Of a DNA stretch of 64,000 nucleotides, positions 4,177 to 43,937 are shown in pieces. Both the position numbers and the translations under genes were made by a program. Under the pieces are notes generated by a model. That model ran no database searches. It was not told the DNA's origin and saw nothing but the letters and a program-made list of their open reading frames with translations. Where the stretch lies: NCBI RefSeq assembly GCF_013167455.1, contig NZ_CP038328.1; one strand, given 5' to 3'. The stretch comes from Escherichia coli O157:H7. Lineage in GTDB: Bacteria > Pseudomonadota > Gammaproteobacteria > Enterobacterales > Enterobacteriaceae. How positions within the stretch are numbered: the stretch's first letter is position 1; the number at the start of each line of letters is the position of its first letter.

Positions 4177-5615
4177 TTATTTCAGCCCCAGAGCGGCTTT
4201 CATGGTGTAGAAGAGATCGGTCTGGTCGGTCAGTCCAACGACATTGGCGGCATGCGGGCCATACGCCGCAATACGCAACTGACTGCCGGTATGTTCTTGT
4301 GAATCCTCTTCGGAGTTCCCGTAACTCATCACCATCACTGCGCCATCTTTGGTATTTAGCGCCTGAGTGAGGCCCGGAGCTTTGGTATCCGGCGCAACAA
4401 TCTGGCTGGCGTGGGCGTGATCAGCGGTGACTATGACCAGCGTGTTACCATCCTTTTTGGCGAATTCCAGCGCCCGTTGTACGGCTTCATCGAGATCGAC
4501 CGTCTCGCCAATTTGCCCACAAGGATTCGCAGCATGATCCTGTTTATCGATTGACGCACCTTCAACTTGCAGGAAAAAGCCTTTCTCATTTTTACTCAAC
4601 AATTCAATGGCTTTGTCGGTCATCTGTGCCAGGGTCGGTACACTGTCATTACGTTGCGGATTAGGCGTACAGGTGACTGCGGGCTTATCGATATTACCGT
4701 GGTACGTTGCTTTCGGTCCTAGCCAGCGCACTGGCATATTGCCGTCAGCAAACAGGCCAAGCAGGGGTTTTTGCTGATTCGCTTCCGTCACCGAATTCAG
4801 TGAGGCAGCATCGCTCACCAACTGATAACCACGCGCCTGTGCCTGTTCACGCAGCGTTTTTCCCTGCCATTCACCAGCGGTTGCCGTTTCAGCAAAGGTT
4901 TTTGCGCCGCCGCCAAGCGTAACGTCGGCACGAGCGTTAAGCAGCTGTTCGGTAATCGATCCTTTTCCGCCTTTTTCCAGAGCGTTACCCGGACATTTTT
5001 CACTGGTCGCGCTCGGACCGTAGCATTTGCGCGAGGTCACATGCGCCACCAGCGCGGCGGGCGTGGCATCCTGCAACTCTGCGGTAGAAACGTTACCGGT
5101 CGCCAGACCTGCGGCTTTTGCCATTTCCAGAATCGTTGGGTGATCTTTTTCGTGAATATCGACGCCCAGCGCGCCGTTATAGGTTTTGACACCGGTTGAC
5201 CAGGCGGTTGCTGATGCAGCCGAGTCGGTGACGTAGTCCGGTTTTCCGGTTTTTTTATTCAGCGCATAGTGAGTGTATTGCCCGGTAAGCGGTAAGGCAT
5301 CGATACCTTTAAAAAAGCCGCCCGCACCTTCGGCATAATTACGTGCGGCAGTAATTTCCGAATCCCCCATCCCATCGCCAATCAGCAAAATAATATTTTT
5401 TGCAGGTTTATCGCTAAGAGAATCACGCAGAGCGGCGGTCTGATCAGCCGTTAAGCGGCGGTCTGATCAGCCGTTAAGCGGCGAGCACCGCCGGGTGCAG
5501 TAATATCGCCCTGAGCAGCCCGGTTTTCCAGAACAGGCATTTCTGGTGTCCGGGCTTTTGTCACAGGGGTAAACAGTAACGGTAAGAGTGCCAGTGCAAT
5601 AGTGCTTTGTTTCAC
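4177..5615 (-). pseudogene. phoA: Alkaline phosphatase phoA, reading frame broken by a 23-bp direct tandem duplication in the region encoding the first residues of the mature protein
   Basis: N-terminal fragment (ORF 5451..5684: ...[54 protein letters not shown]) and C-terminal fragment (4177..5388) lie in different frames. The span from the GTG start to the stop is 1439 nt, which is 1416 + 23. Confidence 0.85.
5432..5477. repeat. Perfect direct tandem duplication of a 23-bp unit (plus strand GCGGCGGTCTGATCAGCCGTTAA x2) inside phoA
   Basis: Both copies read directly and adjacent; the second copy brings a TAA in frame. Confidence 0.9.
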
Positions 5616-5677
5616 TTTATTTTCTCCATGTACAAATACATTAAAAAATAAAAACAAAGCGACTATAAGTCTCGGCC

Positions 5678-5695
5678 GTGACAACTTTATGACAG
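5678..5695 (-). promoter_or_regulatory. Pho box (CTGTCATAAAGTTGTCAC on the minus strand) of the phoA promoter, with -10 TATAGT about 10 bp downstream
   Basis: Matches the remembered K-12 phoA promoter sequence CTGTCATAAAGTTGTCACGGCCGAGACTTATAGTCGC. Confidence 0.8.
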
Positions 5696-5715
5696 CTGTT
5701 GAAAAGATTAACTTT

Positions 5716-5976
5716 TTACTGACGAGGATGCTTCAATAACTTCTTTACGTAATCGCGCAGCAGCTCCGTATCGTCGTCAGGAATGCTGGCATCGGGCTTT
5801 ACCTCGTACAGCGCCCCCTCTACCTGATCAATCAACCGCTGTTGGTCATTTTGCGCCATATTGCGAAGCATTGCAGTGACGATAATCTCCAAAGCTTCTA
5901 CCTGCGCACACAGTTCTTTCGACTCTTCTTCTTTTTGGGCAAGCTTAAATAACAACTCAGCAATGAGATTTTTCAT
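5716..5976 (-). CDS. iraP: Anti-adaptor protein IraP (86 aa)
   Basis: [32 protein letters not shown]... coiled-coil small protein; position upstream of phoA. Confidence 0.85.
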
Positions 5977-6438
5977 GTCTGTATTTCCTTATCCAAAGTA
6001 TGGAGAAGTTAACATTATGTTTCACAACTTCATAGTGTCTGGAGGTATTATTTTTATGGCAAAGGAAATACTTTGCGCAAATATTTTTTGTTTGATTACC
6101 AGCGAAACGTTTCTCTTATTTAAATAATTACCCACACAAAACATAGGCTTTTAATTATCAACCTTTATTATAAATAAAAGTTATGAAATATATTCTCTTC
6201 GTTAACTTATAATTAAGAGAAAAAAACTCACCGCATGGCCATTTAAGCCAGGAATAAATTAGCTTCCCGTTCATCATTTTTGTGATCTTGCGCACATCTT
6301 TGAGATAACGCACTTTCTTCACCAGTACGTTGCACGCTTTGTCAGCAGAAGATTGCAACAATCTTTCAGAAGGCCGCGAATCCCCCGTTTTGTCGTGGTA
6401 ATGTATGCACTTTGTGTTAGACGGGATAGGTTTTTAAG

Positions 6439-7533
6439 ATGGAAAAACTGCGGGTAGGAATCGTTTTTGGTGGTAAATCAGCGGAACATGAAGTGTCTCT
6501 GCAATCGGCAAAAAACATTGTCGATGCCATTGATAAAAGTCGCTTCGACGTTGTGCTGCTGGGCATTGATAAACAAGGGCAATGGCACGTCAGCGATGCC
6601 AGCAATTATCTGCTAAATGCAGACGATCCTGCCCATATTGCGTTGCGCCCTTCGGCGACCAGCCTCGCCCAGGTGCCAGGTAAACATGAGCATCAGCTTA
6701 TCGACGCGCAAAACGGTCAGCCGTTGCCGACGGTGGATGTCATTTTCCCGATTGTCCACGGTACGCTGGGCGAAGATGGTTCCTTGCAGGGAATGCTGCG
6801 GGTCGCCAATTTACCGTTTGTAGGTTCTGATGTTCTGGCTTCAGCAGCCTGTATGGATAAAGATGTCACCAAACGTCTGCTACGCGATGCCGGGCTGAAC
6901 ATTGCGCCATTTATTACCCTGACGCGCGCTAATCGTCACAACATCAGTTTTGCCGAAGTGGAGTCTAAACTGGGGTTACCACTGTTTGTAAAACCGGCTA
7001 ATCAGGGCTCTTCTGTTGGTGTCAGCAAAGTAACCAGTGAAGAACAATACGCAATTGCCGTCGATCTGGCGTTCGAGTTCGATCATAAAGTGATCGTTGA
7101 GCAAGGGATCAAAGGTCGTGAGATCGAATGCGCAGTTCTGGGCAACGACAATCCGCAAGCCAGCACCTGTGGCGAGATCGTACTCACCAGCGATTTCTAT
7201 GCCTACGACACCAAGTACATTGACGAAGATGGCGCGAAAGTGGTAGTTCCGGCAGCCATTGCGCCAGAAATCAACGATAAGATCCGGGCGATTGCCGTTC
7301 AGGCTTATCAGACGTTGGGATGCGCAGGCATGGCGCGTGTAGACGTGTTTTTAACCCCAGAGAACGAAGTGGTGATCAACGAGATCAACACACTGCCTGG
7401 CTTCACCAACATCAGTATGTATCCGAAGCTGTGGCAAGCCAGCGGTCTGGGTTACACCGATCTGATCACACGTTTGATTGAGCTGGCGCTGGAGCGTCAC
7501 GCTGCGGATAACGCATTGAAAACCACAATGTAA
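6439..7533 (+). CDS. ddlA: D-alanine--D-alanine ligase A (364 aa)
   Basis: ATP-grasp ligase with [25 protein letters not shown]-terminus; recognised as DdlA. Confidence 0.95.
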
Positions 7534-38265: not shown

Positions 38266-39930
38266 TCAGGCTACCTTTTCGACAGAAACGTCGGCATCAG
38301 GGCGGGTCAGCGTCATCACCGACGCCAGTTTATTCAGGGTCTTGCCCAGTGTTTGCGGAATGGCGGTGGCGGCAACAAAGCGATCCGGGCGCATCACCAC
38401 CAGCGAAGCATTGTGTTGCGCGAACCAGCTACGCAGGCGACCTTGCGTATCCCCCACGCGTAGTACGCCGTCGTGGTTATCCTGTGCGGTATGAATTTGC
38501 ACTTCCGGCACCACCTGAATGAAGCGTGTGCTCAACGCGCGCCACTGCTGGATTTGCTCGTCGCTCATCCCCCACAGTGGATTGCATCCCCAGCCAATTA
38601 CCGCGAAGTTCGCGCCGATCGCGTTATCGAGCAGCGTCACGTCGCCGTTTTCCAGCGTGACTTTCGGCTGAATAAACATCTTGCCGACCGGAGAGTGCTT
38701 CGCTTCGCCCTCACGCACCAGCGCACCGCCGTAATATTGCGGCATCGGCTTGAAGCGCATTTCGAGGAAGTAGCGTTTTACTGGCGGCAGATAATTCAGC
38801 AGCCAGGAAACGCCGTCACGTAACGTACCCTGCCAGCGTTTCGGCGGAGCCAGCACGTTGCCCGCCGTCACGGACAGGTCAATCATCGCTTTGGCGTGAT
38901 CGCGACGTTCTTGTTGATAGGTATCGAGCAGCGCATCGCGGGCTTTCCCCTGGATAACCAACGCCAGTTTCCATGCGAGGTTAAAGGCGTCGCGCATACC
39001 ACTGTTATAGCCCTGCCCCTGCCATACCGGCATGATGTGCGCGGCATCGCCCGCCAGCAGTACGCGATCAATACGGAAACGTTGCGCCAGTCGCGCGTTG
39101 TGGGTGTAGACACGCTGGCGAATCAATTCAACATTGTCCGGATTAGGCAGCACTTTGCTTAACAGCTTGCGCATATTTTGCGGCTCACGCAGCTGTTCTT
39201 CGGTTTCTCCCGGCATCACCATAAATTCAAAGCGACGTACCGCATGAGGTAGCGCGGCAGAAACATACGGGCGCACCGGATCGCAACACAAATAGATATG
39301 CGGCGTACTTAACGGATCGTTGGCGATATCTACCACAATCCACTGATTTGGCGCAGTTTTACCTTCAAACGGCACATTCAGGGTGCGACGGACAAAACTT
39401 GCCCCACCATCACAGGCCACCAGCCACTGGGCTTTGACTATTTCCCGCAGCCCTTCTGCCGTTTTCAGGTGCAAGGTCACTTCGTCATCTTGCTGACTGA
39501 AGGCCTCCAGCTCGCGGGAAAACAAGCAGCGCACATTCGGAAAACGCGACACCCCTTCCAGCATCACCGCATCGACCTGCGGCTGAATAAAGGCGTTACG
39601 GCGCGGCCAGCCAAATTCATCGGTCATTGGCTGAATATCAGCAAAACAGCGGCCCTTCGGGGTGAGAAAACGCATCGCGTGCCACGGCGTAGTATGCGGC
39701 AGAACATTATCGACCAGGCCGACCGACTGCATGGTGCGCAGCGCCTCGTCATCAATACCAATCGCACGCGGGTAGTCGATCAACTTATCGAGTTTCTCCA
39801 CCACCAGCACGTCAATGCCCATCTGGCCGAGATAGTTCGCCATCATCAGCCCGACCGGACCGGCACCAGCGATCGCCACCTGAACGCTATGGTTAACAGC
39901 AGGCTGGATGTCAGGGTGTTGTATTGCCAT
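38266..39930 (-). CDS. mhpA: 3-(3-hydroxyphenyl)propionate hydroxylase (FAD monooxygenase)
   Basis: 554 aa with GAGPVG FAD-binding motif. Confidence 0.9.
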
Positions 39931-40120: not shown

Positions 40121-40954
40121 ATGCAGAACAATGAGCAGACGGAATACAAAACCGTGCGCGGCTTAACCCGCGGTCTAATGTTATTAAATATGTTAAATAA
40201 ACTTGACGGCGGTGCCAGCGTCGGGCTGCTGGCGGAACTCAGCGGCCTGCATCGCACCACTGTGCGGCGACTGCTGGAGACGCTGCAGGAAGAGGGATAT
40301 GTCCGGCGTAGTCCCTCCGATGATAGTTTTCGTCTGACCATCAAAGTGCGGCAATTAAGCGAAGGATTTCGTGACGAACAGTGGATTTCTGCACTGGCGG
40401 CCCCACTGCTGGGCGATCTGTTGCGCGAAGTGGTATGGCCGACAGATGTGTCCACGCTGGATGTTGATGCAATGGTGGTACGCGAAACCACTCACCGTTT
40501 CAGCCGCTTATCCTTTCACCGGGCAATGGTCGGGCGGCGTTTACCGCTTCTGAAAACCGCCTCGGGCCTGACCTGGCTGGCCTTTTGCCCGGAACAAGAA
40601 CGCAAGGAATTAATCGAGATGTTAGCCTCCCGCCCCGGTGATGACTATCAACTGGCACGAGAACCGTTAAAGCTGGAAGCCATTCTGGCGCGCGCGCGCA
40701 AAGAGGGTTACGGACAGAACTACCGCGGCTGGGATCAGGAGGAGAAGATCGCCTCTATCGCCGTACCGCTGCGCAGTGAACAACGGGTGATTGGCTGTCT
40801 GAATCTGGTGTATATGGCGAGCGCAATGACCATCGAACAGGCAGCGGAAAAGCATCTTCCGGCACTACAACGGGTAGCAAAACAGATCGAAGAAGGGGTT
40901 GAATCGCAGGCTATTCTGGTGGCCGGACGGCGAAGCGGCGTGCATTTACGCTAG
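40121..40954 (+). CDS. mhpR: IclR-family activator of the mhp operon (277 aa; start at MQNNEQTEY)
   Basis: IclR-type HTH plus effector domain, divergent from mhpA. Confidence 0.9.
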   Translation: MQNNEQTEYKTVRGLTRGLMLLNMLNKLDGGASVGLLAELSGLHRTTVRRLLETLQEEGYVRRSPSDDSFRLTIKVRQLSEGFRDEQWISALAAPLLGDLLREVVWPTDVSTLDVDAMVVRETTHRFSRLSFHRAMVGRRLPLLKTASGLTWLAFCPEQERKELIEMLASRPGDDYQLAREPLKLEAILARARKEGYGQNYRGWDQEEKIASIAVPLRSEQRVIGCLNLVYMASAMTIEQAAEKHLPALQRVAKQIEEGVESQAILVAGRRSGVHLR

Positions 40955-41068
40955 TTACGCCAATGTGTAATTTGGCCCATTCTCATCGTTATTCGCCCAT
41001 TTGCCCACATGCACAGTACGGGCTGCACGCTACGCTAATGACATCAATACTGTGATGTGGAGCAAATC

Positions 41069-41845
41069 ATGAAAATTACGCAAATTCGTAATGCCACCCA
41101 AATTATCCAATACGCTGGCAAAACATTTCTTATCGACCCGTTACTCGCGCCTAAAGGAAGTTATCCGGGTTTTGCCGGAACGGCACGCGCAGAAATCCGC
41201 AATCCAACGGTAGAATTACCGTGCGATTTAACAACGTTACTCAACGTTGACGCCCTAATCGTGACCCATTTGCATGAAGATCACTGGGACGAAACAGCCT
41301 CCCGCGTCGTCCCTAAAGATAAACTGATTTATGTGCAAAATGAGCAAGATGCTGAATCACTGAATAAACAAGGATTTACGCATCTTACCGTACTTACCGA
41401 CGAGACTAAATTTGGCGATATTACTCTGCATAAAACGACAGGGCAGCACGGCTCCGATCGCACCTATGCCGACCCGGCGATGGCGAAGCGTTTAGGCGCA
41501 GCTTGCGGCGTTGTTTTCCAGCACCCGACAGAGAAAACGCTCTATCTGGCTGGCGATACCCTCTGGCGTGACGACGTCGAGGCTACAATGCTAACTTTCC
41601 AACCAGAAGTGGTTGTGTTGAATGCCGGATTTGCGCATGTTCTGGGGCATGGCGCGATAATTATGGGAGCAGAAGATATTCTCAAAACACATTTTACCCT
41701 CCCAGAAGCGCAAATTATCGCGACACATATGGAGGCCGTAAACCACTGTTTGCTGACGCGTGATGCGCTCAAGGAATACGCCAGAGATAATCAAATTATC
41801 GAATTTGTGAACGTACCAGAAGATGGTGAAACGTTGACATTCTAA
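41069..41845 (+). CDS. Metallo-beta-lactamase-fold hydrolase (about 258 aa), function unknown
   Basis: HxHxDH zinc motif THLHEDHWDE; GGAG RBS 6 nt upstream of the ATG. Confidence 0.75.
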   Translation: MKITQIRNATQIIQYAGKTFLIDPLLAPKGSYPGFAGTARAEIRNPTVELPCDLTTLLNVDALIVTHLHEDHWDETASRVVPKDKLIYVQNEQDAESLNKQGFTHLTVLTDETKFGDITLHKTTGQHGSDRTYADPAMAKRLGAACGVVFQHPTEKTLYLAGDTLWRDDVEATMLTFQPEVVVLNAGFAHVLGHGAIIMGAEDILKTHFTLPEAQIIATHMEAVNHCLLTRDALKEYARDNQIIEFVNVPEDGETLTF

Positions 41846-41864
41846 TTCGGAGATAAAGAGTGTT

Positions 41865-42818
41865 ATGCGCCCGCTAACTGTTGCCATTATCGCCGTTGCC
41901 GGTTTTAGTCCTTTTCACCTTTCCGTACCGTTTATCGTGTTTAGTGAAAAGATGGCGGAGAAAAAACGCTTTCACGTGATTATTTGCGCTGAAAAGCCGG
42001 GAAACGTGGACTCTGCCGATGGGTTTTCCGTAACCGCCACCCATGACTATACCGCAGTCATCCAGGCAGATATTGTGATAATTCCTTACTGGGGAACCAT
42101 TACACAAAAACCGCCACAAAAACTGCTGGAAGCCTTAACGACCGCACGGGATAACGGCGCACAGATTGTCGGGCTTTGCCTGGGCACGTTTGTGCTCGGC
42201 TATGCAGGTTTACTGAAAAATAAGCGTGCCGCCACGCACTGGGAGTTCGAGCGTGAATTTCAGGCACGTTTTCCACAAACACATCTGGATATTAACGCGT
42301 TGTACGTAGACGATGACGGCATTATTACCTCTGCCGGTACTGCCGCGGCGCTGGATTGCTGTTTGTATATTGTTCGGCAACATTTTGGCAGCGACTATGC
42401 TAACCATATTGCCCGACGGATGGTCGTACCGCCATATCGCACCGGCGGTCAGGCGCAGTTTATTGAGCAACCGGTGCCGAAAAATACCCATGATGAACGC
42501 ATAAACCTCCTGCTGGATTACCTGCGGCAAAACATTGCGCAACAGCATGATCTCGACTCGCTGGCGCAGCGAGTAATGATGAGTCGCCGCACATTAACTC
42601 GCCATTTTATGAAAGCGACCGGTTCGAGTATCGCCGAATGGCTCATTACTGAACGCTTACGCCGTAGCCAGGAACTGTTGGGATCCAGTCAGTTGCCCGT
42701 TGAGCGGATAGCGGCTGAGGTGGGTTTTCTCTCACCTGTGACCTGGCGTCAGCATTTTAAATCTCACTTCGGCGTCAGCCCCGCCGAATGGCGCAAAACC
42801 TTTCGCGGTATGGCATGA
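41865..42818 (+). CDS. GlxA-type AraC-family transcriptional regulator (DJ-1/PfpI-like N-terminal domain plus AraC HTH), 317 aa
   Basis: N-terminal class-I glutamine-amidotransferase-like domain with conserved Cys (GLCLGTF) and C-terminal AraC HTH. Confidence 0.8.
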   Translation: MRPLTVAIIAVAGFSPFHLSVPFIVFSEKMAEKKRFHVIICAEKPGNVDSADGFSVTATHDYTAVIQADIVIIPYWGTITQKPPQKLLEALTTARDNGAQIVGLCLGTFVLGYAGLLKNKRAATHWEFEREFQARFPQTHLDINALYVDDDGIITSAGTAAALDCCLYIVRQHFGSDYANHIARRMVVPPYRTGGQAQFIEQPVPKNTHDERINLLLDYLRQNIAQQHDLDSLAQRVMMSRRTLTRHFMKATGSSIAEWLITERLRRSQELLGSSQLPVERIAAEVGFLSPVTWRQHFKSHFGVSPAEWRKTFRGMA

Positions 42819-42819
42819 T
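42791..42819 (+). promoter_or_regulatory. lacI promoter (-35 GCGCAA, -10 CATGAT) lying inside the 3' end of the upstream AraC-family gene
   Basis: Sequence GCGCAAAACCTTTCGCGGTATGGCATGATAGCGCCCGGAAGAGAGTCAATTCAGGGTGGTGAATGTG matches the remembered K-12 lacI promoter. Confidence 0.8.
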
Positions 42820-42854
42820 AGCGCCCGGAAGAGAGTCAATTCAGGGTGGTGAAT

Positions 42855-43937
42855 GTGAAACCAGTAACGCTATACGATGTCGCAGAGTATGCCGGTGTCT
42901 CTTATCAGACCGTTTCCCGCGTGGTGAATCAGGCCAGCCACGTTTCTGCGAAAACGCGGGAAAAAGTGGAAGCGGCGATGGCGGAGCTGAATTACATTCC
43001 CAACCGCGTGGCACAACAACTGGCGGGGAAACAGTCGTTGCTGATTGGCGTTGCCACCTCCAGTCTGGCCCTGCACGCGCCGTCGCAAATTGTCGCGGCG
43101 ATTAAATCTCGCGCCGATCAACTGGGTGCCAGCGTGGTGGTGTCGATGGTAGAACGAAGCGGCGTCGAAGCCTGTAAAGCGGCAGTGCACAATCTTCTCG
43201 CGCAACGCGTCAGTGGGCTGATCATTAACTATCCGCTGGATGACCAGGATGCCATTGCTGTGGAAGCTGCCTGCGCTAATGTTCCGGCGTTATTTCTTGA
43301 TGTCTCTGACCAGACTCCCATCAACAGTATTATTTTCTCCCATGAAGACGGTACGCGACTGGGCGTGGAGCATCTGGTCGCATTGGGTCACCAGCAAATC
43401 GCGCTGTTAGCGGGCCCATTAAGTTCTGTCTCGGCGCGTCTGCGTCTGGCGGGCTGGCATAAATATCTCACTCGCAATCAAATTCAGCCGATAGCGGAAC
43501 GGGAGGGCGACTGGAGTGCCATGTCCGGTTTTCAACAAACCATGCAAATGCTAAATGAGGGCATCGTTCCCACTGCGATGCTGGTTGCCAACGATCAGAT
43601 GGCGCTGGGCGCAATGCGCGCCATTACCGAGTCCGGGTTGCGCGTTGGTGCGGATATCTCGGTAGTGGGATACGACGATACCGAAGACAGCTCGTGTTAT
43701 ATCCCGCCGTTAACCACCATCAAACAGGATTTTCGCCTGCTGGGGCAAACCAGCGTGGACCGCTTGCTGCAACTCTCTCAGGGCCAGGCGGTGAAGGGCA
43801 ATCAGCTGTTGCCCGTCTCACTGGTGAAAAGAAAAACCACCCTGGCGCCCAAGACGCAAACCGCTTCTCCCCGCGCGTTGGCCGATTCATTAATGCAGCT
43901 GGCACGACAAGTTTCCCGACTGGAAAGCGGGCAGTGA
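42855..43937 (+). CDS. lacI: Lactose repressor, GTG start
   Basis: VKPVTLYDVAEYAGVSYQTVSRV... 360 aa. Confidence 0.95.
   Translation: MKPVTLYDVAEYAGVSYQTVSRVVNQASHVSAKTREKVEAAMAELNYIPNRVAQQLAGKQSLLIGVATSSLALHAPSQIVAAIKSRADQLGASVVVSMVERSGVEACKAAVHNLLAQRVSGLIINYPLDDQDAIAVEAACANVPALFLDVSDQTPINSIIFSHEDGTRLGVEHLVALGHQQIALLAGPLSSVSARLRLAGWHKYLTRNQIQPIAEREGDWSAMSGFQQTMQMLNEGIVPTAMLVANDQMALGAMRAITESGLRVGADISVVGYDDTEDSSCYIPPLTTIKQDFRLLGQTSVDRLLQLSQGQAVKGNQLLPVSLVKRKTTLAPKTQTASPRALADSLMQLARQVSRLESGQ

Follow-up and report, generated by a model that had tools for sequence, protein, structure and literature searches.

A SaxA-family hydrolase gene paired with the regulator gene ovrA beside lacI in Escherichia coli O157:H7: a putative isothiocyanate-detoxification operon

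Two genes between mhpR and lacI

In the 64,000-nucleotide stretch of contig NZ_CP038328.1 (assembly GCF_013167455.1) of Escherichia coli O157:H7 that we analysed, hereafter the window, two genes lie between mhpR and lacI: z0443, which encodes a hydrolase of the metallo-beta-lactamase (MBL) fold, and ovrA, which encodes a regulator consisting of a DJ-1/PfpI-like domain and an AraC-type DNA-binding domain (Table 1). We read the pair, with a probability of roughly 0.7, as a two-gene operon for the detoxification of isothiocyanates (ITCs) that is activated by OvrA and is ancestral beside lacI, the activation of the virulence promoter LEE1 by OvrA being a lineage-specific addition.

Over this region the window matches E. 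coli O157:H7 genomes at 100% identity, and the locus is O-island 19 (OI-19), with 100% identity over 1632 nt to both EDL933 and Sakai at the same site between mhpR and lacI. In EDL933 the island measures 1834 bp and holds two open reading frames (ORFs) (PMC8565820), and reviews of enterohaemorrhagic E. coli (EHEC) from 2021 and 2024 equate OvrA with z0442, treat it as an orphan regulator that lacks a signal and list z0443 as of "unknown function" (PMC8565820, PMC10877973). The pair carries the tags ECs_0399 and ECs_0400 in Sakai, and a recent RefSeq annotation of the second gene reads 'OI-19-encoded virulence regulator OvrA'. OI-19 and OvrA of EHEC O157:H7 strain EDL933 were reportedly the subject of a study by Liu et al. 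in J Infect Dis in 2020.

The gene content, coordinates, lengths, domain calls and THLHEDHWDE motif given in an earlier note on this DNA were all confirmed by the ORF listing and Pfam, and the absence of the pair from K-12 that it gave is real: in a K-12 (O16:H48) genome the end of mhpR and lacI are separated by 76 bp holding no gene. Both z0443 and ovrA are genuine annotated genes under purifying selection and not chance ORFs. Comparing the O157 allele with a 97.5%-identical allele from within E. coli, we obtained a ratio of nonsynonymous to synonymous substitution rates (dN/dS) of 0.09 for z0443 (dS 0.076) and of 0.04 for ovrA (dS 0.111). We follow RefSeq in starting z0443 at the ATG at 41069; an in-frame GTG at 41057 is an alternative that would yield a protein of 262 residues. 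Co-transcription of the two genes is likely, because the 19-nt spacer between them contains no terminator. The promoter and terminator scan likewise found no terminator between ovrA and lacI, which begins 36 nt past the ovrA stop codon. The G+C content of the module is 0.45-0.51, compared with 0.55-0.59 in its flanks.

Table 1. Genes, regulatory elements and retained relic segments at the locus, in window coordinates
Feature	Position	Strand	Description
mhpA	38266-39930	-	ORF listing/RefSeq
mhpR	40121-40954	+	flanking gene, RefSeq start
Conserved ~40-bp site	40971-41012	+	putative operator of OvrA/SaxC-type regulator; TTTGGCCCATTCTCATCGTTATTCGCCCATTTGCCCACATGC
Candidate -10 hexamer TACGCT	41031-41036	+	22 nt past 3' end of conserved site; read from the sequence
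Ribosome-binding site GGAG	41058-41061	+	7 nt before z0443 ATG; read from the sequence
z0443 / ECs_0400 (WP_000705454)	41069-41845	+	258 aa, predicted cytoplasmic MBL-fold hydrolase, SaxA family
z0443-ovrA intergenic spacer	41846-41864	+	19 nt, no terminator
ovrA / z0442 / ECs_0399 (WP_001247696)	41865-42818	+	317 aa, DJ-1/PfpI-like + AraC regulator
Segment retained in ABU 83972-type genomes	42720-42845	+	126 nt; RefSeq: 99-nt ovrA pseudogene
Segment retained in K-12-type genomes	42785-42845	+	61 nt; last 34 nt of ovrA (EWRKTFRGMA*) and spacer before lacI
lacI promoter	42791-42819	+	-35 GCGCAA 42791-42796, 17-nt spacer, -10 CATGAT 42814-42819
lacI	42855-43937	+	flanking gene, RefSeq start
lacZ	from 44060		after lacI

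A SaxA-type hydrolase, its regulator and a shared upstream site

Searched against all PDB sequences, Z0443 found its best match in 6BRM, the isothiocyanate hydrolase SaxA of Pectobacterium (E 5.6e-88, residues 1-258 on 1-259), and BLASTP aligned the two proteins with 54% identity, 71% positives and a single one-residue gap (E 1e-102). The view of the earlier note that the substrate cannot be inferred from sequence does not survive this end-to-end match. The 6BRM enzyme was reportedly crystallised by van den Bosch et al. in 2018. The second PDB match, 3RPC, is an uncharacterised homologue, and the others (NAPE-PLD, UPF0173, CmlA) reached E 0.0085 or weaker. Pfam assigns Z0443 to Lactamase_B_2 (E 2.5e-11), with Lactamase_B reaching only E 0.017 over 58 residues; in NCBIfam no beta-lactamase, lactonase or glyoxalase II model matches, the sole hit being PRK00685 ('metal-dependent hydrolase') at 53.8 bits, below its cutoff of 144.

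The THLHEDHWDE motif occupies residues 66-75 and provides the HxHxDH signature as H67-x-H69-x-D71-H72. Residues D23, H67, H69, D71, H72, H127, D163 and H220 are invariant in an alignment of ten sequences that includes 6BRM, 3RPC and seven homologues, so the set of metal ligands is full and none of those whose loss would speak against an MBL enzyme is missing. The family is compact, with 183 clusters (50% identity) at E 1e-30 among 1.84 billion representatives, and Z0443 has neither an N-terminal extension nor a signal peptide, unlike SaxA proteins of the Pseudomonas type.

SaxA converts R-N=C=S to an amine and carbonyl sulfide (PMC7036374, PMC7303113), and a fungal SaxA homologue has the same activity (PMC7303113). 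The genes are widespread in Enterobacterales, where they form five clusters that have all kept their catalytic properties, and two Pectobacterium SaxA enzymes with a mutual identity of 44.9% are both functional virulence factors (PMC7036374). We consider the membership of Z0443 in the SaxA family well supported at the level of sequence, because its full-length identity of 54% exceeds the 44.9% between those two functional enzymes; for Z0443 itself, ITC-hydrolase activity would be the predicted function. Our literature searches on z0443, z0442, ECs0399/0400 and saxA combined with O157 returned no paper that assigns z0443 a function, reports an assay of its product or ties the island to SaxA. 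Expression of z0443 is RpoS-dependent (10-fold; PMC2907692).

In OvrA, Pfam recognises DJ-1_PfpI at residues 6-171 (E 4.8e-12) and HTH_18 at residues 233-311 (E 3.4e-19) as well as two HTH_AraC matches, the C-terminal AraC DNA-binding domain carrying two helix-turn-helix motifs. Residues 38-194 align to isocyanide hydratase (ICH/InhA; PDB 3NON, 6NI5) with E about 3e-13. The two proteins have an ATTHW motif in common, and C105 of OvrA aligns with the cysteine of the SVCTG motif of the enzyme, which we take to be its catalytic nucleophile. All 64 SaxA-linked regulators examined have C105, H125, D164 and C165, and 63 have C166. The resulting D-C-C motif (residues 164-166, about 42354-42362 in the window) lies in the DJ-1-like domain some 60 residues beyond C105 and is limited to the SaxA-linked clade, with DLG or DLS at this place in paralogues from the same loci; to judge by the isocyanide hydratase structure, the motif may sit on the helix beside C105. 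Assignment of OvrA to named regulators was rejected for both candidates: it scores 323.9 bits with the FtrA model NF006902 (NCBIfam cutoff 425), a related subfamily, and 125.4 bits with the GbdR model NF052371 (cutoff 480).

The pairing of the two genes reaches far beyond E. coli. We scanned genomes for SaxA homologues, taking one genome per species and the best 80 loci, and searched these loci with OvrA by tblastn at a threshold of at least 40% identity. An OvrA homologue adjoins the SaxA homologue in 55 of these best 80 loci. It lies directly downstream on the same strand in 41 and directly upstream in divergent orientation in 14 (Pseudomonas, Stutzerimonas, Advenella, Massilia, Microvirga and others). 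In two loci the homologue is found elsewhere, five loci are cut by a contig end, and 18, mostly from Burkholderia, Nitrosospira, Polaromonas and other distant taxa, have none. Both Pectobacterium loci show the E. coli-type arrangement, and exact-protein look-ups revealed the hydrolase gene followed by the DJ-1/AraC regulator gene in Citrobacter rodentium, Enterobacter cancerogenus and Yersinia frederiksenii as well. No other Escherichia species is among the best 80 loci of the scan, which does not establish that the module is absent there.

Alignment of the DNA upstream of the hydrolase genes uncovered a conserved site of ~40 bp in intergenic regions that are otherwise unalignable, with the family consensus atTGGCCCGATt.cATCGat.atTG.CCtt..GgCCACt. 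By a strict regular expression, 54 of 86 loci have this site ahead of the hydrolase gene, from Enterobacterales and Aeromonas to Pseudomonas, Massilia, Nitrosomonas and Microvirga, and several of the loci that the expression misses carry visibly related variants. The site accompanies the regulator: among 57 loci with an adjacent regulator gene 48 have it, compared with 1 among 20 loci lacking such a gene (Fisher p 2e-10, uncorrected for phylogeny). Scored with a weight matrix, the O157 site reaches 36.2, within the range of true sites (23-51), and the runner-up in the 64-kb window reaches 13.5. This is good comparative evidence for the ~40-bp element as the putative operator of the regulator, and the suggestion of the earlier note that the pair forms a small self-contained detoxification unit gains support from the pairing in 55 of the best 80 species and from the site that goes with it.

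The site would overlap the -35 position of the operon promoter, because the candidate -10 hexamer follows 22 nt after it. Orthologous hexamers stand at about the same distance in Citrobacter (TACGAT), Enterobacter (TATCCT) and Pectobacterium (TATACT). Such an overlap would correspond to the layout of a class II activator, as for AraC-type proteins. A generic scan of 40700-43000 for sigma-70 promoters and terminators found no promoter on the + strand, and sites no more numerous than in shuffled sequence, which fits a weak, activator-dependent promoter, although for a promoter of this kind the scan is uninformative. In the mechanism that we propose, OvrA, as the cognate regulator, most likely binds at 40971-41012, across the -35 region of the weak promoter, and its binding would activate transcription of z0443-ovrA. 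The Z0443 product would then act in the cytoplasm as a metal-dependent SaxA-type hydrolase, turning R-N=C=S and water into an amine and carbonyl sulfide. An ITC or a related electrophile probably serves as inducer, and the conserved cysteines C105 and C165/C166 may be what senses it.

In Pseudomonas loci the hydrolase is ~50-53% identical to Z0443 and a full-length OvrA homologue is 43-45% identical to OvrA, with the conserved site lying between the two genes. Seven loci of this type have a divergent regulator gene, and their SaxA proteins bear an N-terminal extension resembling a signal peptide (for example MKFTTLPLALGIACGAAAVPAFAGSS...), encoded ~100 nt ahead of the aligned part of the hydrolase; the enterobacterial type, z0443 and 6BRM included, is without the extension and without a divergent regulator. 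This suggests that detoxification may be periplasmic in Pseudomonas and cytoplasmic in enterobacteria. The Pseudomonas sax locus was reportedly described by Fan et al. in 2011. It comprises the hydrolase gene saxA, saxB, the regulator gene saxC and the efflux genes saxD/F/G (PMC12903958).

Loss of the module from most E. coli and the origin of the lacI promoter

The order hydrolase-regulator-lacI-lacZ-lacY is found in C. rodentium, with a gap of 33 nt before lacI. In five further Citrobacter species lacI and lacZ come after the pair, and in three of them mhpR lies ~2 kb upstream. Within E. coli we surveyed 5426 complete genomes: 435 have the full module, always on the chromosome, about 487 have a 99-nt ovrA remnant, about 4412 have a short relic only and 92 gave no match, so that the module is absent from about 92% of complete genomes. 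The 435 carriers comprise O157:H7, O55:H7, O145:H28 and scattered isolates from humans, pigs, chickens, a baboon and wastewater, with alleles 97.5-99% identical.

What the remaining genomes retain is the 3' end of ovrA. The K-12 relic (2501-2561 of the K-12 locus that we extracted) still reads (I)EWRKTFRGMA* and holds the W-R-K-x-F motif conserved in the family, and the junction in ST131, of phylogroup B2, is the same as that in K-12, of phylogroup A. In ABU 83972 (1895-2635 of its extracted locus) the mhp cluster is missing altogether, and yaiL directly adjoins the 99-nt ovrA pseudogene, which lies immediately upstream of lacI; Nissle 1917 and UTI89 have the same 99-nt remnant (flanks inspected in ABU 83972 only). 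Phylogroup B2 is thus non-uniform at this locus, with the K-12-type junction in ST131 and the yaiL-adjacent remnant in ABU 83972. Examined for microhomology, the K-12 deletion junction showed about 8-10 nt (GACACCAT) that have no aligned counterpart on either side in O157. We conclude that the module is ancestral beside lacI and predates the split of Escherichia and Citrobacter, that the K-12 state is a deletion, and that most E. coli lost the module, in no fewer than two independent deletions that each left the ovrA 3' end in place.

Synonymous divergence accords with this history. The flanking genes mhpR and lacI have dS values of 0.18 and 0.19, of the same order as the module genes (0.08-0.11). 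With such dS values and dN/dS below 0.1, the module appears to have descended vertically under purifying selection and not to be a recent import. No mobility genes or repeats flank the module; a collection of phages gave five weak, unannotated matches of doubtful relevance. The framing of the pair in the earlier note as an extra absent from K-12 stands as far as K-12 lacking it is concerned, and the direction is reversed, for the relics and the synteny in Citrobacter mean that K-12 lost it.

The retained segments include a functional element of lacI. The hexamers GCGCAA and CATGAT form the established lacI promoter, known from the lacIq and lacIq1 promoter mutations and reportedly the subject of the classical work of Calos in 1978. 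This promoter lies within the last ten codons of ovrA, and its -10 hexamer overlaps the TGA stop codon (42816-42818). The layout recurs in C. rodentium (GCGAAA ... CATCAT). In C. youngae ovrA and lacI are ~110 nt farther apart, with a relic-like second copy, AAAACCGTTCC...GGCATCATAGCGCGCAG, beside lacI. The promoter that drives lacI in K-12 is a leftover of the ovrA 3' end, and that both deletions stop upstream of it is expected if lacI expression was under selection. We did not find this origin of the promoter in the literature searched; one comparative study overlooks OI-19 and names mhpR as the upstream neighbour of lacI in Sakai (PMC4549013).

In the K-12-like E. coli lab strain FELIX_MS78 (2497-2557 of its extracted locus) a 15-bp deletion (TCGAATGGCGCAAAA) in the mhpR-lacI spacer brings the TTGACA of the mhpR stop codon and deletion junction to the -35 position. 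The deletion presumably corresponds to the engineered lacIq1 allele, and it fits the assignment of the lacI promoter hexamers. Several Citrobacter loci (four, at about 6743-7500 in their own coordinates) have ~760 bp between the regulator gene and lacI, and in one of these the gap contains an ORF of 251 residues on the minus strand; the gap is absent in C. rodentium and in C. youngae ATCC 29220.

A paralogue of z0443 with 63% identity occurs on IncY and other plasmids. Some match to the hydrolase is found in 409 plasmid records, 128 of them from E. coli and including a plasmid of the O55:H7 strain RM12579, and matches occur on plasmids of Cronobacter, Providencia and E. fergusonii as well. The one E. 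coli IncY plasmid that we inspected, pTET-GZEC065, carries (5001-7192 of the extracted locus) the hydrolase gene, then a regulator gene whose product shares 58% identity with OvrA, then a small 'ester cyclase' gene.

Competing readings and likeness to known systems

According to published work, OvrA recognises 5'-GACATTTAATGATAATG-3' in the LEE1 promoter of the locus of enterocyte effacement (LEE) and activates ler, with electrophoretic mobility shift assays (EMSA), chromatin immunoprecipitation with quantitative PCR (ChIP-qPCR) and a DNase I footprint on LEE1, and deletion of ovrA lowers adherence, LEE expression and colonisation of mice (PMC8565820, PMC10877973). In Sakai we located the published motif 201 nt upstream of the ler start codon, where it overlaps a TTGACA hexamer. 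These results, and the finding that z0443 can be deleted with no effect on virulence, favour an island that is primarily virulence-regulatory, with OvrA serving ler and LEE1 and z0443 riding along as an unrelated passenger. We hold this to be unlikely: the pair and its site are found in LEE-less Enterobacter, Yersinia, Pectobacterium, Aeromonas, Pseudomonas and Nitrosomonas, and in O157 the two genes are tightly linked by the 19-nt spacer and both under purifying selection. LEE control cannot be the ancestral or the general role of the regulator, because the pair is conserved in many LEE-less bacteria. The two readings are also compatible, as OvrA could have gained LEE1 as an extra target, and its activation of LEE1 is best read as a later, lineage-specific added target or as lower-specificity binding.

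Less likely still is that the hydrolase uses a different substrate, such as an acyl-homoserine lactone, a thioester, a beta-lactam or another ester, and resembles SaxA in fold only. The idea draws on the functional diversity of MBL-fold enzymes, on the fact that SaxA activity of Z0443 is read from its sequence, on the additional roles that the SaxA authors propose (PMC7036374) and on the name 'UlaG' that JGI gives to some homologues. It sits badly with a similarity that runs from end to end at 54% identity while the next PDB families reach E 0.0085 or weaker, with the lack of any curated beta-lactamase, lactonase or glyoxalase II match in NCBIfam, with the absence from Z0443 of the signal peptide normal in class B beta-lactamases, and with the activity kept by SaxA enzymes as divergent as 44.9% (PMC7036374). 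That the module is a recent, horizontally acquired island of the O157 lineage, as the term 'O-island' suggests, we regard as very improbable. Its absence from K-12 and some 92% of the complete E. coli genomes, its G+C content below that of the flanks, the frequent mobility of SaxA genes (PMC7036374) and the paralogue on IncY plasmids would all agree with acquisition, but this is contradicted by the in-frame ovrA 3' relics with different deletion end points in K-12 and ABU 83972. The same gene order beside lacI in Citrobacter, in some species with mhpR upstream, the 97.5-99% identical alleles at the same site in non-O157 lineages, the dS values of the same order as the flanks and the lack of flanking mobility genes or repeats speak for ancestry as well.

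The preferred reading, an ancestral ITC-detoxification operon under OvrA, is carried by what we observed: the family assignment by sequence, the pairing, the upstream site tied to the regulator, purifying selection and ancestral presence. A number of points weigh against it. Allowing up to three mismatches, we did not find GACATTTAATGATAATG near z0443, its sole match in the window being at chance level and inside lacZ; the published LEE1 site is AT-rich, unlike the conserved ~40-bp site; and across the 49 kb of Sakai LEE that we scanned with the weight matrix, the 1.3 kb before ler among them, there is no operator-like site (best score 2.7). This leaves two binding modes of OvrA or an error in one of the two site assignments. 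In P. viridiflava saxA is only slightly induced by ITC and saxC is not induced (PMC12903958), RpoS-dependent expression of z0443 occurs without added ITC (PMC2907692), the authors of the SaxA work suggest roles beyond plant ITCs (PMC7036374), and z0443, listed as unknown in the EHEC reviews, gave no virulence phenotype upon deletion (PMC8565820). The equation of the regulator with SaxC would follow from the published saxCAB gene order taken together with Pseudomonas loci of other species. C105 is also present in 7 of 8 SaxA-unlinked GlxA-type paralogues and so provides no specific evidence for ITC sensing. Streptomyces AdpA, of similar architecture, uses its DJ-1-like domain for dimerisation.

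An extension of the preferred reading, which we put forward as rather unlikely, is that OvrA directly senses ITCs or similar dietary electrophiles and is switched on by covalent modification of C105 and C165/C166, such that in EHEC mustard oils from Brassica feed or vegetables would bring about their breakdown by inducing Z0443 and, through LEE1, modulate type III secretion and colonisation. Covalent sensing by the OvrA cysteines is chemically plausible because isothiocyanates react with thiols, and remains speculation. Were it true, an orphan virulence regulator from the literature would gain a ligand and a common dietary compound would be tied to EHEC virulence; ITCs might also raise LacI levels, as ovrA is followed by lacI with no terminator. 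A literature search linking isothiocyanates to LEE returned mostly fluorescein isothiocyanate (FITC) artefacts.

Recognition of a SaxA-type operon provides a specific hypothesis for both the substrate of the enzyme and the inducer of OvrA. It may also have practical relevance: ITCs, such as allyl-ITC in meat and on seeds, phenethyl-ITC and sulforaphane, are promoted as anti-EHEC agents, and we found an intact homologue of an ITC hydrolase in every O157:H7 genome sampled and a plasmid-borne paralogue in many E. coli. A 2025 review on ITCs mentions no degrading enzyme (PMC11719993). For genome history, O-island 19 represents the ancestral state and not an acquisition, and in the textbook lacI promoter of K-12 the 3' end of ovrA survives as a fossil, which accounts for two independent deletions ending just before it.

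The earlier note had allowed that the pair might prove to be a named and characterised system, and this is largely the case, since the island OI-19, the regulator OvrA and the enzyme family SaxA have all been described already; current understanding is not overturned. What appears to be new in the literature searched is the relation of z0443 to SaxA, the place of OvrA as a conserved cognate regulator with a site unlike that of LEE1, the ancestral status of OI-19 and the derivation of the K-12 lacI promoter from ovrA.

Among known systems, the GlxA-type regulators FtrA and GbdR have the two-domain architecture of OvrA and are its best NCBIfam matches; they differ in that OvrA scores below their curated cutoffs and in that the D-C-C motif belongs to the SaxA-linked clade alone. 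Isocyanide hydratase resembles the N-terminal domain of OvrA in the aligned cysteine (C105) and the ATTHW motif, whereas in OvrA this domain is fused to a DNA-binding domain, and we propose no catalytic role for the cysteine, which is a candidate sensor. The Pseudomonas sax locus has a hydrolase of the same family adjoining an OvrA homologue and the same conserved site, with a divergent regulator and a hydrolase extension there, and OI-19 is without saxB and the efflux genes. Closest is Pectobacterium: SaxA 6BRM (259 residues, compared with 258) has the MBL metal-ligand set identical to that of Z0443 and is likewise without a signal peptide, and in two genomes a SaxA gene 54-55% identical to z0443 has the same regulator gene directly downstream and the same site upstream. 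The difference is that O157 is an animal-gut and food-borne organism and no pathogen of Brassica, and that activity of Z0443 would be predicted from its sequence. Finally, the published O-island 19 is the very same locus, with 100% identity to EDL933 and Sakai; there it figures as an O157-type island with a virulence regulator and a protein of unknown function, and here as a conserved unit with a SaxA-family assignment that represents the ancestral state.

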